DNA of 6,642 nt, taken from sequence record CP126040.1, one strand, 5' to 3'. This stretch comes from a plasmid. A program made the position numbers and the translations under genes. Below the pieces are notes generated by a model, which ran no database searches, was not told the origin of the DNA, and saw only the letters and a program-made list of their open reading frames with translations. Below are positions 1,465 to 6,642 of this stretch, piece by piece (positions within the stretch are counted from its first letter, which is position 1; each line of letters begins with the position of its first letter).

Positions 1465-1944
1465 TTAGCTGTTCTTCCAAAATTGCCACCACTTTTTTTG
1501 TTTAGTGGCTGCGATCATTCTTTGTGTCTCTAGCGACTCCCGTAATGCGGCAGTGAGTGTCTCGTGCCTTTCTTGCTGTCTTTTTTCGAATTGTTCCATC
1601 CGTTCTGCCATCCTTTGGTTGAATTCTTCCTGTCGCTTCATGAATTCAACCAAAGGATTGTCCTGTAGCGATGTAGCGGTATCCGATATGGTCAGTTTTG
1701 AACGATACAGGCTTGCTATATGCTTTACCGTTTCGTCGAGTGAGTGTCCATTGATCTTAGTCATTGTACATAGATACTCTAAAGTCTTTACGTCATCCTC
1801 GGTATAGAGTCGCCATCCTTTTGAATCTTTATTGAAGGAGTAGCCTTGTTCTTCAAGCATACTGGCATACTTGCGGACAGTCACCGGCTCTATACCGAGG
1901 TGTTTTGCGACGTCTTTGGACGATAATTTGACTCCCATATCCAT
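1465..1944 (-). CDS. MerR-family helix-turn-helix transcriptional regulator of about 159 aa, with an N-terminal HTH and a C-terminal coiled-coil. It is convergent with mob, with 12 nt between the two stop codons.
   Basis: The N-terminal segment LSSKDVAKHLGIEPVTVRKYASMLEEQGY...KGWRLYTEDDVKTLEYL matches the MerR-type HTH pattern (helix, turn, recognition helix, then a W/Y-R-x-Y wing). The C-terminus is a Q/E/R-rich predicted coiled-coil. An RBS GAGGTG sits 7 nt before the ATG at 1944. The GTG at 1947 is an alternative start with only 4-nt spacing. Confidence 0.7.
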   Translation of the reverse strand: MDMGVKLSSKDVAKHLGIEPVTVRKYASMLEEQGYSFNKDSKGWRLYTEDDVKTLEYLCTMTKINGHSLDETVKHIASLYRSKLTISDTATSLQDNPLVEFMKRQEEFNQRMAERMEQFEKRQQERHETLTAALRESLETQRMIAATKQKKWWQFWKNS

Positions 1945-2002
1945 CACGAATCACCTCGTAAAATAGGTTCGCTATGGAGAGGCCAGACACCTGCACCCTT
2001 TA

Positions 2003-2229: not shown

Positions 2230-2397
2230 ATGCAAAAGATTGATTTTGAAACAGGGATGAAATATGTAAGAGCAACTCTTGGCTTTGAGGGCTTAGTGCT
2301 GACGGAAGAAGAGGAAAAGCTTTTAGAAAGGCGGTTTCATGGAGAAATCACAGAAGAAGAATACATACGAAAAGCGCTGGAGCTGTCTTATCTCTAA
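2230..2397 (+). CDS. Small 55-aa protein with the VbhA-like Fic-antitoxin motif. It stands alone, with no Fic-domain gene in the window.
   Basis: ATG at 2230 preceded by a strong RBS, GAGGAGGGGG (2214-2223). The product is MQKIDFETGMKYVRATLGFEGLVLTEEEEKLLERRFHGEITEEEYIRKALELSYL. The segment TLGFEGL...GEITEEEYIRKALE aligns with the VbhA antitoxin core (S-Q-R-L-E-G-L...G-E-L-E-T-S-D-V-I-K-D-L-M-E), including the inhibitory (S/T)xxxEG glutamate motif. The ORF is too short for the supplied six-frame track. Confidence 0.55.
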   Translation: MQKIDFETGMKYVRATLGFEGLVLTEEEEKLLERRFHGEITEEEYIRKALELSYL

Positions 2398-2810: not shown

Positions 2811-3164
2811 TGCTGTCATCTGTATAGGTATTGATATATGCGTCTGAGAATGCTCAGATTAGCTTCTGAGGGCTTTTAATAAAAAAACCGACCTGAGGGA
2901 AGGGGGTGCTCTTAAAATCGAATATAGAGACGTTTAATGCGTTTGAAAATAAAAAAAGCAGACTTTTGAGAGTCCGCCTTGTTATTTTTAGCCCAGTGCA
3001 CCATTTTCAGCAACTTGAAAATCTTTTGATATGCCTTAGAAGAGTGTAGTGTAAGGGGGTTTTTCCGTGGGAGGGCTTTAAAATATTTTGCAAGATTCAC
3101 TTTTTCGAACTGATTTGAGCGAAAAAGGAACAGATTTGTTACTGAATCTCTTACATGGGTTTTG

Positions 3165-3220
3165 AAAAAAGCGCTTTTGGATGTTAAAAAGGCTTTTTCG
3201 CATGAAAAAAGCCGATTTTC
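3165..3220. repeat. Three phased A-tract / GC-core / T-tract mini-palindromes: AAAAGCGCTTTT, AAAAAGGCTTTTT and GAAAAAAGCCGATTTTC. Their centres fall at about 3172, 3192 and 3212, giving a ~20-bp periodicity.
   Basis: Read directly. A-tracts phased at two helical turns predict intrinsic DNA curvature. The position is upstream of the dso. Confidence 0.5.
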
Positions 3221-3509: not shown

Positions 3510-4535
3510 GTGTTCATGTATTCATCTGAAAATGATTATAGCATCCTTGAGGACAAAACCGCAACAGGTAAAAAGCGGGATTGGAAAGGGAAAAAGAGAC
3601 GGGCAAATCTTATGGCGGAGCATTATGAGGCCTTACAGAAAAAAATTGGAGCGCCTTACTATGGCAAAAAGGCTGAGCGTTTATCTGAATGTGCAGAGCA
3701 TCTGTCGTTTAAAAGAGACCCGGAAACGGGCAGGTTGAAACTGTATCAAGCCCATTTTTGTAAAGTGAGGTTATGCCCGATGTGTGCATGGCGCAGGTCG
3801 TTAAAAATTGCTTATCACAACAAGCTCATCGTTGAGGAAGCCAATCGGCAGTACGGCTGCGGATGGATTTTCCTTACGCTGACGGTTCGAAATATCGAAG
3901 GTGAAGCATTGAAACCAACGATTTCTGACATGATGAAAGGGTGGAATCGTCTTTTTGGATATAAACGGATTAAGACAGCCACCTTGGGATATTTTAGAGC
4001 ATTAGAGATTACGAAAAATCATGAAGCAGATACATATCATCCGCATTTCCATGTGTTGTTACCTGTAAAGAGAAATTATTTCGGCAAAAATTATATCAAG
4101 CAAGCGGAATGGACAAGCCTTTGGAAAAGGGCAATGAAACTGGACTACACGCCGATTGTCGATATTCGTCGAGTGAAAGGTAAAGCGAAGGTTGACGCTG
4201 AACAGATCGAGAGCGATGTACGGGAAGCGATGATGGAGCAAAAAGCCGTTTTGGAGATTTCTAAGTACCCAGTGAAAGATACCGATGTTGTGCGTGGTAG
4301 CAAGGTGACGGATGATAATTTGAACACGGTGTTTTACTTGGATGATGCGCTTTCTGCGCGCCGGCTTATTGGTTACGGCGGCATTTTGAAGGAAATTCAT
4401 AAGGAACTGAACCTCGGTGATGCGGAAGACGGCGATCTCGTCAAGATTGAGGAAGAAGATGACGAAGTTGCAAATGGTGCATTTGAAGTCATGGCTTATT
4501 GGCATCCTGGCATTAAGAATTACATACTCAAATAA
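3510..4535 (+). CDS. rep: Rolling-circle replication initiator Rep (Rep_1 / pC194-pUB110 family HUH endonuclease).
   Basis: KLYQAHFCKVRLCPMCAWRRSLK aligns with pC194 RepA KLYKANSCKNRFCPVCAWRKARK. The HUH motif is present as HPHFHVLLPV, and the catalytic Tyr motif as EISKYPVKDTD. The GTG at 3510 lies 5 nt after the RBS AAGGAG. An in-frame ATG at 3516 (11-nt spacing) is an alternative start. Confidence 0.92.
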   Translation: MFMYSSENDYSILEDKTATGKKRDWKGKKRRANLMAEHYEALQKKIGAPYYGKKAERLSECAEHLSFKRDPETGRLKLYQAHFCKVRLCPMCAWRRSLKIAYHNKLIVEEANRQYGCGWIFLTLTVRNIEGEALKPTISDMMKGWNRLFGYKRIKTATLGYFRALEITKNHEADTYHPHFHVLLPVKRNYFGKNYIKQAEWTSLWKRAMKLDYTPIVDIRRVKGKAKVDAEQIESDVREAMMEQKAVLEISKYPVKDTDVVRGSKVTDDNLNTVFYLDDALSARRLIGYGGILKEIHKELNLGDAEDGDLVKIEEEDDEVANGAFEVMAYWHPGIKNYILK

Positions 4536-4540
4536 AAAAA

Positions 4541-4568
4541 GAGACCCTCAAAAGGTCTTTTTTTTATG
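4541..4568 (+). terminator. Rho-independent terminator for rep: stem GAGACC / GGTCT(T) with a 7-nt loop (ctcaaaa), then a T9 run.
   Basis: The hairpin plus T9 run lies immediately after the rep stop at 4533-4535. Confidence 0.7.
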
Positions 4569-4727
4569 CCGTGTTTGAATTAACAAAATGCGTTATATGA
4601 CAAAAAAACCTCTATTTTGATTAAATCCTTAATTTTTCCTTAAAAAACAAAATTAAAAACCAATAATAAACAAAAATGTACTATCGTACTATTGTATATA
4701 TTTTTAATTAATGGAAAGGAGACTTCT

Positions 4728-5189
4728 ATGGTTATTAATTCATTAAAAAGAAGCCAAATGCTTCTGCCCTTAACAATTATTTTGTCTTTATTATTAACTG
4801 TTGGTTATGCGTTGCTTCCTGTTAAAGACTCATCTATAGCTAAAGCTGATACAGTAGATAAGACATTTTCAACCACTAGCGGAAAGGCTTGGACTTCAGT
4901 AGCAAAAAAAGCAAACACTAGTGGAGTTTACGTTAAGGTGAAAAAAGGAGAAAGAGTGCTAGTTTCTGTCTTTGCTGATGCAAATAAGGGCAAAGGAAAA
5001 AGAAAATGGGTAAACGTTTCTGGTAGCTCTGGAGGCAGTTTAGGTACTTATGTATCTTCAGGACATACATATCATCTTACCAATTATGCTGTTGAAAGAT
5101 ATGGAAAGGGAGTTCCTATACGTTTACTTGTTGATAAAGGCGGTAAGTCTGGAAAAGTTGAATTTCTTTGGAGTCCAGACTCCAGATAA
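4728..5189 (+). CDS. Secreted small protein, paralog A (153 aa). It has an N-terminal Sec-type signal peptide with a predicted SPase I site AKA|DT, and a ~113-aa mature part.
   Basis: RBS AAGGAG (4716-4721) sits 6 nt before the ATG at 4728. The six-frame track places the start upstream at TTG 4692, which lacks an RBS. A charged n-region (KRSQ) is followed by a hydrophobic h-region, LLPLTIILSLLLTVGYALL, and then AKA-D. The product is ~70% identical to the next ORF. Confidence 0.8.
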   Translation: MVINSLKRSQMLLPLTIILSLLLTVGYALLPVKDSSIAKADTVDKTFSTTSGKAWTSVAKKANTSGVYVKVKKGERVLVSVFADANKGKGKRKWVNVSGSSGGSLGTYVSSGHTYHLTNYAVERYGKGVPIRLLVDKGGKSGKVEFLWSPDSR

Positions 5190-5213
5190 AATTTAAGTTA
5201 AGGAGTGTATTAT

Positions 5214-5663
5214 ATGGCTATTCGAAATATTTTAGAAAAAAGTAAAGTATTAATTATAGTTGGAGCTGTTTTATGTTTAATGGTTTCAATAATTTCTTAT
5301 CCTCCTTTGGCTAAGGCAGATACAAAGGACAGAACTGTAAATGTTAATGCATCACATGGTTGTACTACTGTTGCAAAAAAAGCAAATACTAGTGGTGTTT
5401 ATTTGAAAGTATTGTCTCATGGAAGTGGTCGGAATATGCTTGTTTACGTCGATGCTGATGCGAACAAAGGAAAAGGAAAAAGGCACTGGGTAAATGTTTC
5501 TGGAAAAGATAAAGCTAGTCTAGGTAAATATGTTACAAAGGGGAACACGTATCACCTTACCAATTATGCTGTTGAAAGATACGGAAAGGGAGTTCCTATT
5601 AGACTTTGTTTCGATGGAGATAAAGGGAAAATTAATTTCCTTTGGAGTCCGGATAGTAGATGA
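5214..5663 (+). CDS. Secreted small protein, paralog B (149 aa), with a signal peptide and predicted cleavage at AKA|DT.
   Basis: RBS AAGGAG (5201-5205) sits 8 nt before the ATG at 5214. The h-region is VLIIVGAVLCLMVSIIS. The conserved blocks VAKKANTSGVY, DANKGKGKRxWVNVSG, TYHLTNYAVERYGKGVPIRL and FLWSPDSR are shared with paralog A. Confidence 0.8.
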   Translation: MAIRNILEKSKVLIIVGAVLCLMVSIISYPPLAKADTKDRTVNVNASHGCTTVAKKANTSGVYLKVLSHGSGRNMLVYVDADANKGKGKRHWVNVSGKDKASLGKYVTKGNTYHLTNYAVERYGKGVPIRLCFDGDKGKINFLWSPDSR

Positions 5664-5667
5664 TGAG

Positions 5668-5693
5668 AAGCAGGATTAATCCTGCTTTTTTAT
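5668..5693 (+). terminator. Rho-independent terminator: AGCAGGA-ttaa-TCCTGCT, then T6.
   Basis: A perfect 7-bp stem and T-run lie 5 nt after the stop of paralog B. Confidence 0.7.
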
Positions 5694-5750
5694 TTTGATT
5701 TTGGTAAAATGTGATAAGCGAGTTTTGAAAATGTGGAGGAGGAAATTTCT

Positions 5751-6311
5751 TTGACAAAAGAAAAAGTTTCTAAAAAGAAGAGCTCTATTTTAGAGTGGGG
5801 CAAGGCTATTGTGATAGCCGTTATACTTGCTCTTCTTATTCGGAATTTTTTGTTTGAGCCGTATGTGGTAGAAGGTAAATCTATGGAACCCACTTTGGTT
5901 AATTCAGAAAGATTATTTGTGAATAAGACGGTTAAGTATATAGGCAATTTTAAACGAGGAGATATTATAATTTTAAACGGAAAGGAAAAAGGCGTACACT
6001 ATGTAAAGCGATTAATTGGTTTACCTGGAGACACTGTAGAAATGAAGAATGACCACCTTTTTATTAATGGAAAACAAGTGAAGGAACCATATTTGTCCTC
6101 TAATAAAACAAATGCTGAGAGTATGGGAATAAACCTTACAGGGGATTTTGGGCCAATTAAAGTTCCAAAAGGTAAATATTTTGTTATGGGTGATAACCGA
6201 CAAGAATCCATGGACAGTCGTAACGGTCTTGGTCTCTTTACTAAAGATGATATTCAGGGAACTGAAGAGTTTGTTTTTTTTCCGTTTAGTAATGTGCGTC
6301 AAGCTAGATAA
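5751..6311 (+). CDS. sipP: Type I signal peptidase (SPase I, SipS/SipP-like; ~186 aa from the TTG at 5751).
   Basis: SPase I box B GKSMEPTL carries the catalytic Ser. Box D YVKRLIGLPGD carries the catalytic Lys. Box E is GDNRQESMDSRNGLG. The N-terminus TKEKVSKKKSSILEWGKAIVIAVILALLIRNF closely parallels B. subtilis SipS (MKSENVSKKKSILEWAKAIVIAV...). RBS GGAGGAGG (5735-5742) sits 8 nt before the TTG at 5751. The six-frame track begins at the in-frame GTG at 5733, which would overlap the RBS. Confidence 0.9.
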   Translation: MTKEKVSKKKSSILEWGKAIVIAVILALLIRNFLFEPYVVEGKSMEPTLVNSERLFVNKTVKYIGNFKRGDIIILNGKEKGVHYVKRLIGLPGDTVEMKNDHLFINGKQVKEPYLSSNKTNAESMGINLTGDFGPIKVPKGKYFVMGDNRQESMDSRNGLGLFTKDDIQGTEEFVFFPFSNVRQAR

Positions 6312-6316
6312 TTTTT

Positions 6317-6350
6317 CAGACTGAAACAGGCTATGAGGTCTGTTTTTTAT
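6317..6350 (+). terminator. Probable terminator after sipP. Alternative stems are CAGAC/GTCTG or AACAG/CTGTT, followed by T6 and ATTTTTATTT.
   Basis: A weak stem but a clear T-run lies 6 nt after the stop. Confidence 0.4.
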
Positions 6351-6418
6351 TTTTATTTGAAAATTTAATACATAGAACAAAATGTTCATATATATGCTGT
6401 GGGAGGGGAAAGGATTTT

Positions 6419-6472
6419 CCGATTTTCTGCCGATCACTTATTGGCAGAAAATCGGGTCGGCATGTGGCCGAC
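6419..6472. repeat. Perfect 13-bp inverted repeat, CCGATTTTCTGCC-(11 nt)-GGCAGAAAATCGG (6419-6455), immediately followed by a second hairpin, GTCGGC-atgtg-GCCGAC (6456-6472). No T-run follows either one.
   Basis: Read directly. The element sits in a GC-richer non-coding spacer between the sipP module and oriT. Confidence 0.5.
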
Positions 6473-6560
6473 AAGTGGCACGAACTTTCGATGCGATAGC
6501 GAGAATGAGAGAGCCACCGGCACCGCAGGTCGCACGTCCAAATTGAATCCGTAGGAACAA

Positions 6561-6584
6561 TTTGGTGTAGTGTGTTACACCAAA
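6561..6584 (+). other. oriT: Origin of transfer (oriT) of the pMV158/MOBV type. A 9-bp inverted repeat, TTTGGTGTA / TACACCAAA, flanks GTGTGT. The predicted nick is in TAGTGTG/TTA, between 6574 and 6575.
   Basis: The sequence TAGTGTGTTA is identical to the pMV158 oriT nick-site core (GTGTG/TT). It lies in or near the loop of an inverted repeat, as in MOBV oriTs. If the molecule is circular, it sits ~60 bp upstream of mob. Confidence 0.65.
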
Positions 6585-6598
6585 ACTGAAATTTTGTG

Positions 6599-6627
6599 TT
6601 ACCATAACCCTAATAGAGTGGTATATA
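6599..6627 (+). promoter_or_regulatory. Candidate mob promoter: -35 TTACCA, a 17-nt spacer, then an extended -10 TGgTATATA. It reads into the mob GTG at window position 1 only if the window is a circular unit.
   Basis: The TGn-TATATA motif is read directly. oriT overlapping or abutting the mob promoter is the known pMV158 arrangement, where MobM binding autoregulates. Confidence 0.3.
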
Positions 6628-6642
6628 TTGGGGGGGATTCGT

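Follow-up and report, generated by a model that had tools for sequence, protein, structure and literature searches.

Does a signal peptidase gene that lies beside genes for secreted proteins encode an enzyme dedicated to those proteins, or has it only been inherited as their neighbor? The question is raised by the small plasmid of sequence record CP126040.1, analyzed here over its full length of 6,642 nucleotides (the window). In this plasmid two tandem paralogous genes for predicted secreted proteins (paralogs A and B) are followed by sipP, a gene for a type I signal peptidase (SPase). A sequence-only reading of the window had described the three genes as a compact, AT-rich module between terminators and had proposed an undescribed system in which a processing enzyme is supplied along with its high-flux cargo. 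The description is accurate, its features falling on the stated coordinates or a few bases away, with the boundaries refined to positions 4540 and 6353, but the system is not new. The region is the two-copy form of an accessory cassette with sipP that is long known from small rolling-circle plasmids of Bacillus. The explanation that we favor, and that is probably correct, is that the paralogs, which can be placed, at a sub-threshold level, in the small family DUF2712, have an inherited linkage to a general SPase and do not form a dedicated enzyme-plus-cargo pair with it. The value of the analysis is mostly corrective, since the arrangement is real but has been known as the sipP module of pTA1015 and pTA1040 since the 1990s. 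What remains of interest is what the small secreted DUF2712 proteins do, together with a newly noted and testable association of the wider family with a LanFEG-like ATP-binding cassette (ABC) transporter.

The sipP cassette and its earlier occurrences

The features of the cassette, in window coordinates, are as follows (all on the plus strand; RBS, ribosome-binding site; aa, amino acids; pI, isoelectric point).

4540-6353: whole accessory cassette (two DUF2712-like genes and sipP), between the rep terminator and the oriT/mob (transfer origin and mobilization) backbone
4536-4564: predicted intrinsic terminator after rep, foldable on both strands (-10.1 kcal/mol, z = -3.5, then a T-run)
4565-4727: AT-rich leader, with a candidate promoter element TG + TACTAT at 4677-4684 and the RBS AAAGGAG at 4715-4721
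4728-5189: paralog A, DUF2712-like preprotein of 153 aa, ATG start, RBS AAAGGAG at 4715-4721
4728-4847: predicted signal peptide of paralog A, cleavage AKA↓DT
4848-5186: mature domain of paralog A, 113 aa, 12.1 kDa, pI 10.1, no Cys
5214-5663: paralog B, DUF2712-like preprotein of 149 aa, ATG start, RBS AAGGAG at 5200-5205
5214-5318: predicted signal peptide of paralog B, cleavage AKA↓DT
5319-5660: mature domain of paralog B, 114 aa, 12.5 kDa, pI 9.8, two Cys
5665-5690: predicted intrinsic terminator between paralog B and sipP (-14.0 kcal/mol, z = -4.0)
5698-6353: sipP sub-cassette, movable without the paralogs (comparison with CP120571.1)
5751-6311: sipP, P-type (Ser/Lys) type I SPase of 186 aa, TTG start, RBS GGAGGAGG at 5735-5742
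6323-6346: predicted intrinsic terminator after sipP (-10.5 kcal/mol, z = -2.8, then a T-run)

The limits of the cassette are given by pBV454-3, a backbone relative that lacks it and has other genes in the slot. Homology to this plasmid breaks off at 4539 and returns at 6354, so that the cassette comprises 4540-6353, about 1.8 kb. Its GC content is 33.8% compared to 44.9% for the remaining plasmid, and GC at third codon positions is 0.20-0.28 in the cassette genes and 0.46-0.55 in rep and mob. The three genes are a discrete, compositionally foreign accessory cassette. Each of them has a strong RBS of its own. This cassette is itself composite, with a DUF2712 unit and a separable sipP unit. In plasmid CP120571.1 the gene order is rep-hsp20-sipP-mob; the DUF2712 gene is absent and sipP is 99.4% identical to that of the window. 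That plasmid matches window positions 5698-6634 at 97.7% identity, and the breakpoint at 5698 falls directly after the terminator that follows paralog B.

The same cassette has been deposited many times. At 98.5-99.8% identity it occurs in at least eight PLSDB plasmids, where it is annotated as "hypothetical protein (x2)" followed by "lepB". In one of them, NZ_CP033053 (99.8% identical), the RefSeq calls for A, B and sipP have the same coding lengths as here (462, 450 and 561 nucleotides). The exact protein sequences are also public, A on 37 contigs (as "hypothetical protein") and B on 43. The plasmids of the pS499/IT-45/Bac57 type share the whole cassette at this level of identity, both paralogs included, and differ in being 8.0-8.7 kb with a rap-phr cassette, while the window plasmid is 6.6 kb and lacks rap-phr. 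On the published map of pS499 both paralogs are drawn only as "Hyp" (PMC5243856).

A one-copy form is found in pTA1015, pBEST195S, pTA1040 and pHYC-10, each of which has one homologous open reading frame (ORF) directly upstream of sipP. For example, the 146-aa ORF of pTA1015 is 59-62% identical to A and B over its full length, and the gene order of the window cassette matches NC_001765 and NC_001764. pTA1015 and pTA1040 resemble the window plasmid in having a Rep_1 rolling-circle replicon, a MobV relaxase, an accessory slot downstream of rep, and in that slot a DUF2712-type ORF with an A/V-x-A↓DT site directly upstream of sipP, with a terminator in between. Where the pTA plasmids have a single copy, the window has a diverged pair, one member A-type and the other B-type with two Cys; identity to the pTA copies in the mature domain is 62-75%, and rap-phr genes are absent from the window. 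The sipP region of pTA1015 and pTA1040 is said, by the title of a 1995 publication, to be a structural module. Because this is the module of pTA1015 and pTA1040, deposited many times, there is no case for pursuing the arrangement as a new system.

Tandem pairs are not confined to the window cassette and its near-identical copies. A pair followed by a SPase gene also occurs in Bacillus sp. 18-5 (locus L010) and in loci L011 and L012, and further tandem pairs are present on an 8,050-bp contig of B. halotolerans (P0002, P0004) and on a short metagenome contig (L009). The linkage to sipP, like the other gene neighborhoods described here, was followed through contigs that encode relatives and through PLSDB; this does not amount to a systematic survey. 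Among small PLSDB plasmids with a DUF2712 gene of the plasmid clade, 30/30 carry sipP; conversely, the family is present in 30/31 of the sipP-type small plasmids. Direct adjacency was seen in the contexts inspected, namely pTA1015, pBEST195S, pTA1040, pHYC-10, NZ_CP033053, Bacillus sp. 18-5 and L011/L012. The order rep, one or two DUF2712 genes, then sipP is kept across lineages 30-40% apart in protein sequence. The sequence-only reading had named, as a result that would refute it, that the paralog family is never associated with sipP in other replicons; this refutation fails, because the linkage is found there.

The predicted terminators of that reading, including the one between paralog B and sipP, were recovered with z scores of -2.8 to -4.0 at the positions listed above. 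A scan of the region gave seven terminator-like sites where 1.0 was expected, and placed the post-rep site on the minus strand, at 4558-4542. The hairpin upstream of sipP is the same in pTA1015 as in the window. At the same position in pTA1040, L010 and L011 there is a hairpin of unrelated sequence (-16.6 kcal/mol). A predicted terminator thus separates the paralogs from sipP in every lineage compared, with two unrelated hairpin sequences, and because the position is kept while the sequence is not, termination at this point appears to be selected in itself. In the leader, an extended -10-like element, TGnTATTAT, is kept at the aligned position in pTA1015, pTA1040, L010 and L011. An Rfam scan of the cassette gave a sole match, to Chloroflexus-1 (E 0.74), which is noise.

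The paralogs and the DUF2712 family

Both paralogs have canonical Sec/SPase I signal peptides as predicted from their sequences. The n-region has a charge of +2, the h-region is 22 residues long with a mean Kyte-Doolittle hydropathy of 2.2-2.3, and Ala occupies positions -3 and -1; these features were scored by a heuristic script, not SignalP. The observation that both signal peptides end in AKA↓DT was reproduced by this script, with mature products of 113 and 114 aa, and no lipobox or LPXTG motif was found in A or B. The same design extends to the rest of the plasmid clade. In all 11 copies examined the Sec signal peptide ends in A/V-x-A↓DT. The h-regions are long, 19-22 residues. The mature proteins are strongly basic (pI 9.8-10.2) and have a KGKGK loop.

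The mature domains of A and B are 66% identical (BLASTP E = 2e-50) and have the blocks TYHLTNYAVERYGKGVPIRL and FLWSPDSR in common, as had been noted from the sequence. The paralogs are real genes under purifying selection. The ratio of nonsynonymous to synonymous substitution rates (dN/dS) is 0.22 between A and B, with dS (1.3) near saturation; among mature domains of the various copies it is 0.17-0.41, with dS up to 1.6. Chance ORFs are ruled out by a dN/dS of about 0.2 together with conservation across lineages. Across the plasmid clade, one half of the mature sequence does not vary.

Three to four allele types can be distinguished, a two-Cys type (B and the pTA1040 copy), a pTA1015 type, and a type comprising A and the second copy of L010. 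Paralog B groups with the two-Cys clade of the pTA1040 type. The types are combined in differing tandem orders from plasmid to plasmid. In the tandem pair of L010 (4894-5799) the signal-peptide parts are nearly identical (dS 0.07) and the mature parts have diverged (dS 0.72, dN 0.29). Nearly identical 5' ends with diverged mature parts suggest recombination between cassettes or gene conversion at the 5' ends.

Membership of the paralogs in DUF2712 (PF10916) is, on sequence grounds, at a sub-threshold level, and the family is a small one confined to Bacilli. In the profile search suggested by the sequence-only reading, with PF10916.13 (gathering threshold 22 bits), neither A nor B gave a match at E <= 10. 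The best score of the plasmid clade against that profile was 18.7 bits, for the pTA1015 copy, below the threshold but with nearly the full model aligned. The source database tags every relative, the plasmid clade included, as PF10916.15. A profile of the plasmid clade reaches a relative of the B. cereus type (P0012) with E 1.2e-10, and a broadened profile collects 39 clusters with E values down to 1e-47, mostly chromosomal and from the B. cereus and B. subtilis groups. Twelve residues are invariant throughout the family: D44, W54, Y75, N79, Y80, A81, E83, V89 and W108-S109-P110-D111 (mature A numbering).

This plasmid clade is tiny: 5.8 billion proteins contained 11 clusters of it, and in a profile scan of 1.84 billion representatives only six proteins reached E <= 1e-3. 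Among species-representative genomes a first scan found no relative and a second only two loci; the family was absent from the phage genomes searched. Scans of A and B against Pfam, NCBIfam, PADLOC and PHROGs gave no significant family. A GXGXG match (E 0.013) was dismissed as a chance result of the KGKGK loop, and matches to anti-sigma-factor models (E 0.012 and 0.073) as the product of a transmembrane (TM) segment followed by a beta-rich domain. A literature search on DUF2712, DUF2705 and the protein accessions found no publications. DUF2712 is carried, among other places, on multicopy plasmids of Bacillus strains from industry, food (natto, doenjang) and biocontrol.

A few database entries carry other names. 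A natto plasmid of the pTA1015 type, NZ_CP041371.1 (5,820 bp), is deposited as Paenalkalicoccus suaedae, and partial DUF2712 copies are filed under Staphylococcus xylosus and the Stenotrophomonas maltophilia group (P0064 and P0034). All of these are probably cases of contamination or mislabelling.

The structure prediction that had been suggested for the fold gave a confident model. The AlphaFold model of paralog A (pLDDT 85, pTM 0.81) is an all-beta jelly-roll. Its top fold match is the toxin component PirA. A sequence-profile search of the PDB with the paralogs found no solved relative.

Outside the sipP plasmids DUF2712 genes are found in a different setting. In B. cereus- and B. subtilis-group chromosomes a conserved cluster opens with DUF2712, which is followed by genes for three proteins with 4-6 TM segments, an ABC ATPase, and an N-terminally anchored, presumably extracellular protein of about 180 aa. 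A lipoprotein gene directly after DUF2712 is peculiar to the B. cereus group, where hpf and secA flank the cluster; in B. subtilis its flanking genes are phrF and speB. A B. cereus plasmid of 9 kb with MobV also has a gene-by-gene homologous cluster, and a related one is on an 82 kb plasmid of Lactococcus lactis, where it adjoins a class II bacteriocin export locus. The loci of the DUF2712-ABC cluster are:

L016, 6001-10088
L019, 6001-10719
L028, 5025-8520
L027, 7025-11846

Cluster members outside the sipP plasmids have no family assignment. The ATPase is closest to the lantibiotic-protection family TIGR03740 (LanF-type), at 161 bits compared to about 122 for generic models, with a family cut-off of 310. 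Distant DUF2712 copies keep a Sec signal peptide with a small-x-A site, which reads AKA in copies from the B. subtilis and B. cereus groups. No SPase gene was found next to the chromosomal, B. cereus-plasmid or Lactococcus-plasmid DUF2712 genes inspected. Because the usual partner of DUF2712 is a LanFEG-like transporter with no SPase nearby, the sipP-linked plasmid clade would be a derived exception. The linkage to the ABC genes hints at a secreted protein that is directed to the cell envelope and is possibly antagonistic.

Loci of the lactococcin 972 type offer a comparison. Lactococcin 972-type proteins are Sec-dependent beta-sandwich bacteriocins with an adjacent ABC transporter. Such loci, and LanFEG transporters, are similar to the wider DUF2712 family in that the gene for a Sec-secreted beta-sandwich protein precedes those for an ABC ATPase and multi-TM partners. 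The differences are that DUF2712 has no sequence match to the Lactococcin_972 family, that its mature protein is twice as large, that its cluster has three distinct membrane subunits, and that the cassette of the window has no ABC genes at all.

SipP and its linkage to the paralogs

SipP is, as judged from its sequence, a complete general-type SPase I, and the cleavage activity of this allele is predicted. It scores 188.1 bits with Peptidase_S26 (cut-off 22.9) and 175 bits with TIGR02227 (cut-off 47). The Ser and Lys boxes that had been seen as intact (GKSMEPT and YVKRLIG) and the motif GDNRQESMDSR align with the SPase I structures 4nv4 and 4wvg, and a single N-terminal membrane anchor spans residues 12-30 (mean Kyte-Doolittle 2.21). 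The protein is 90% identical to SipP of pTA1015, and 69% identical both to SipP of pTA1040 and to the chromosomal SipT. For SipP of pTA1015 signal-peptide cleavage is reported, to judge by a title, that of Tjalsma et al. (1999), according to which SipP can stand in for SipS and SipT, the major SPases. Because that title reports replacement of both, SipP would be a general enzyme.

In two loci sipP is split into ORFs of 83 and 102 aa (L011 9033-9589 and L012 6900-7456), and the DUF2712 genes are intact. The split is either a pseudogene or a sequencing error, the latter being likely. It was considered as a sign that sipP is dispensable; this was rejected because the assembly is concatemeric and has other broken ORFs.

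The sequence of events that we favor begins with export of the A and B preproteins by the Sec pathway. Cleavage after AKA could then be carried out by any major type I SPase, either SipS or SipT of the host or SipP of the plasmid, and would release basic (pI about 10) jelly-roll beta-sandwich proteins of 12 kDa. These would bind a conserved extracellular or envelope ligand, for which the proposed binding residues are D44, W54, Y75, N79-Y80-A81, E83 and W108-S109-P110-D111 (mature A numbering). SipP would act as a general-purpose SPase that adds to the processing capacity of the host and may offset the load of preproteins expressed from a multicopy plasmid. It would accompany DUF2712 mainly as a neighboring inherited cassette and not as a dedicated enzyme. 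From the LanFEG-like cluster found elsewhere, the most likely role of DUF2712 itself would be that of an envelope-directed binding or antagonistic protein. Even if SipP is merely a booster of capacity, the cassette would still be useful as a natural design for high-level secretion.

The proposal that SipP is on the plasmid specifically for two high-flux DUF2712 preproteins, as SipW is for TasA and TapA, starts from a linkage that is real. Each plasmid-clade replicon that was inspected has sipP together with DUF2712, the order of these genes after rep survives considerable divergence, and the h-regions of the signal peptides are long. It is the dedication that fails to follow from these facts. 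In all lineages a predicted terminator sets the cargo apart from the enzyme, CP120571.1 has sipP but not the cargo, and outside the plasmid clade no SPase adjoins DUF2712 relatives whose cleavage site is of the same type. The enzyme is moreover a P-type Ser/Lys SPase close to SipT that reportedly, by the 1999 title, replaces SipS and SipT, and AxA is a generic SPase I site. The comparison with tapA-sipW-tasA leads in the same direction. In that locus, too, a type I SPase gene adjoins genes for secreted beta-rich proteins; SipW is an ER-type (endoplasmic reticulum type, Ser/His) SPase that is co-transcribed with its cargo and required for it. In contrast, the SPase of the window is of the P-type, is set off by a predicted terminator and can be separated from the cargo, and the cargo family elsewhere does not need a linked SPase. 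A dedicated pair is accordingly improbable in our estimate.

Several points weigh against a purely inherited association and against the family and functional assignments that go with it. The linkage of plasmid-clade DUF2712 to sipP is very tight (30/30, in about 5-6 sequence-distinct lineages), and hitch-hiking alone predicts more exceptions, so that some functional coupling is possible. Such coupling could take the form of load compensation, or of long-h-region signal peptides that prefer SipP. A generic promoter scan found seven candidate promoters where 6.5 were expected from shuffled sequence, which is chance level for both units, and no convincing sigma-A promoter for sipP was found by eye. 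Because no promoter stands above chance for either unit, read-through co-transcription of the paralogs and sipP is possible. The family assignment of A and B is sub-threshold, as described above. The fold matches are generic jelly-rolls with about 10% identity, and they indicate no function. Inherited linkage to a general SPase is nevertheless the reading that we consider most probable.

What the DUF2712 proteins do is a separate matter, on which three proposals can be compared. They may be benign lectin-like proteins, or proteins like carbohydrate-binding modules (CBMs), that are secreted or wall-associated and serve as surface or matrix components or as partners of the ABC system. The family-invariant residues, aromatic or acidic in character (W, Y, D, N, E), recall those of sugar-binding sites, and the high pI and KGKGK loop would help to hold the proteins on the anionic cell wall of Bacillus. 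Sequence searches match no CBM or lectin family, however, and the conserved partnership with an ABC transporter is left unexplained. This role is put forward only tentatively. In a second proposal the proteins are Sec-secreted, bacteriocin-like envelope antagonists from which the producer is protected, in most replicons, by the LanFEG-like ABC and anchored proteins, the clade on rolling-circle plasmids having the effector only, with diversified alleles. DUF2712 heads a homologous ABC cluster in two chromosomes, a B. cereus plasmid and a Lactococcus plasmid; the ATPase prefers TIGR03740 over generic models (161 vs about 122 bits); the Lactococcus copy is beside a class II bacteriocin export locus; the 3-4 allele types occur in varied tandem combinations; and the top fold match is a toxin component. 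These points are offset by the score for TIGR03740, which is far under its cut-off of 310, by the generic nature of the fold matches (jelly-rolls at about 10% identity), and by the absence of an immunity candidate from the window cassette, which means that the host would need intrinsic or chromosomal protection. Toxins that diversify rapidly would not be expected to show a dN/dS of about 0.2 and invariance at half of their residues; there is no match in the bacteriocin, defense or phage libraries searched (Pfam, NCBIfam, PADLOC, PHROG) and no publication was found. An antagonistic role is thus rather unlikely on present evidence. A third proposal, in which the secreted proteins inhibit proteases and so reduce extracellular proteolysis by the host, has the pS499 phenotype as its point of departure. 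The Rap phosphatase, absent from the window plasmid, is a sufficient explanation of this phenotype, and the proteins have no similarity to any inhibitor family; the ABC linkage would again be unexplained. Protease inhibition is very improbable. In order of likelihood, benign binding ranks ahead of ABC-protected antagonism, and both rank ahead of protease inhibition.

A bolder synthesis can be formulated, although we regard it as doubtful. DUF2712 proteins might be an unrecognized group of Sec-secreted jelly-roll envelope effectors of Bacilli whose normal partner is a LanFEG-like transporter of four components with anchored accessory proteins, the two forming a toxin-immunity or ligand-handling pair. 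On rolling-circle plasmids of the B. subtilis group a SPase would have replaced this partner, leaving a minimal, multicopy, allele-shuffling cassette of effector and processing capacity that confers a competitive or surface-modifying trait on the cells that carry it. If the proteins did prove to be Sec-dependent antagonists or envelope binders, this would provide a reason for the persistence of these "cryptic" plasmids, and would define a new class of protein-sized effector with protection of the ABC type.

The plasmid backbone and its cargo slot

The window represents a whole plasmid, a small rolling-circle replicon of the B. subtilis group that is circularly permuted at mob. The features outside the cassette are:

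1-1452: MobV relaxase
1465-1947, minus strand: DUF3967/MerR-like regulator
2230-2397, plus strand: small VbhA-like ORF, 55 aa
2421-2476, plus strand: Bacillus-plasmid RNA (full-length match to Rfam RF01691, 61.4 bits, E 2e-12)
3510-4535: Rep_1 initiator (268 bits), directly upstream of the cassette, with MobV downstream

The nearest public records are the B. velezensis and B. amyloliquefaciens plasmids Bac57, pS499 and IT-45 (8.0-8.7 kb). The chief difference from them is that the window has no rap-phr cassette (window about 2880-3210 compared to L002 6953-8648), and the plasmid can be regarded as a shorter derivative or a sister of the pS499/Bac57 type. The slot between the rep terminator and oriT/mob is a point of cargo exchange. 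It holds a DUF5316 gene and a hypothetical gene in pBV454-3, hsp20 and sipP in CP120571.1, and two DUF2712 genes and sipP in the window (4540-6353 compared to L029 1711-2999 and L008).

The ORF at 2230-2397 has a sub-threshold likeness to the antitoxin VbhA (21.4 bits, cut-off 25.9), and in pTA1040 an ORF is annotated as VbhA family; no Fic-type toxin gene is found on the window plasmid. The RF01691 match lies within a GC-rich stretch at 2400-2700 that is probably the single-strand origin region. Inverted repeats with GC at 6456-6472 and 6561-6584, in the backbone just upstream of the mob start, are probably oriT-related and not terminators.

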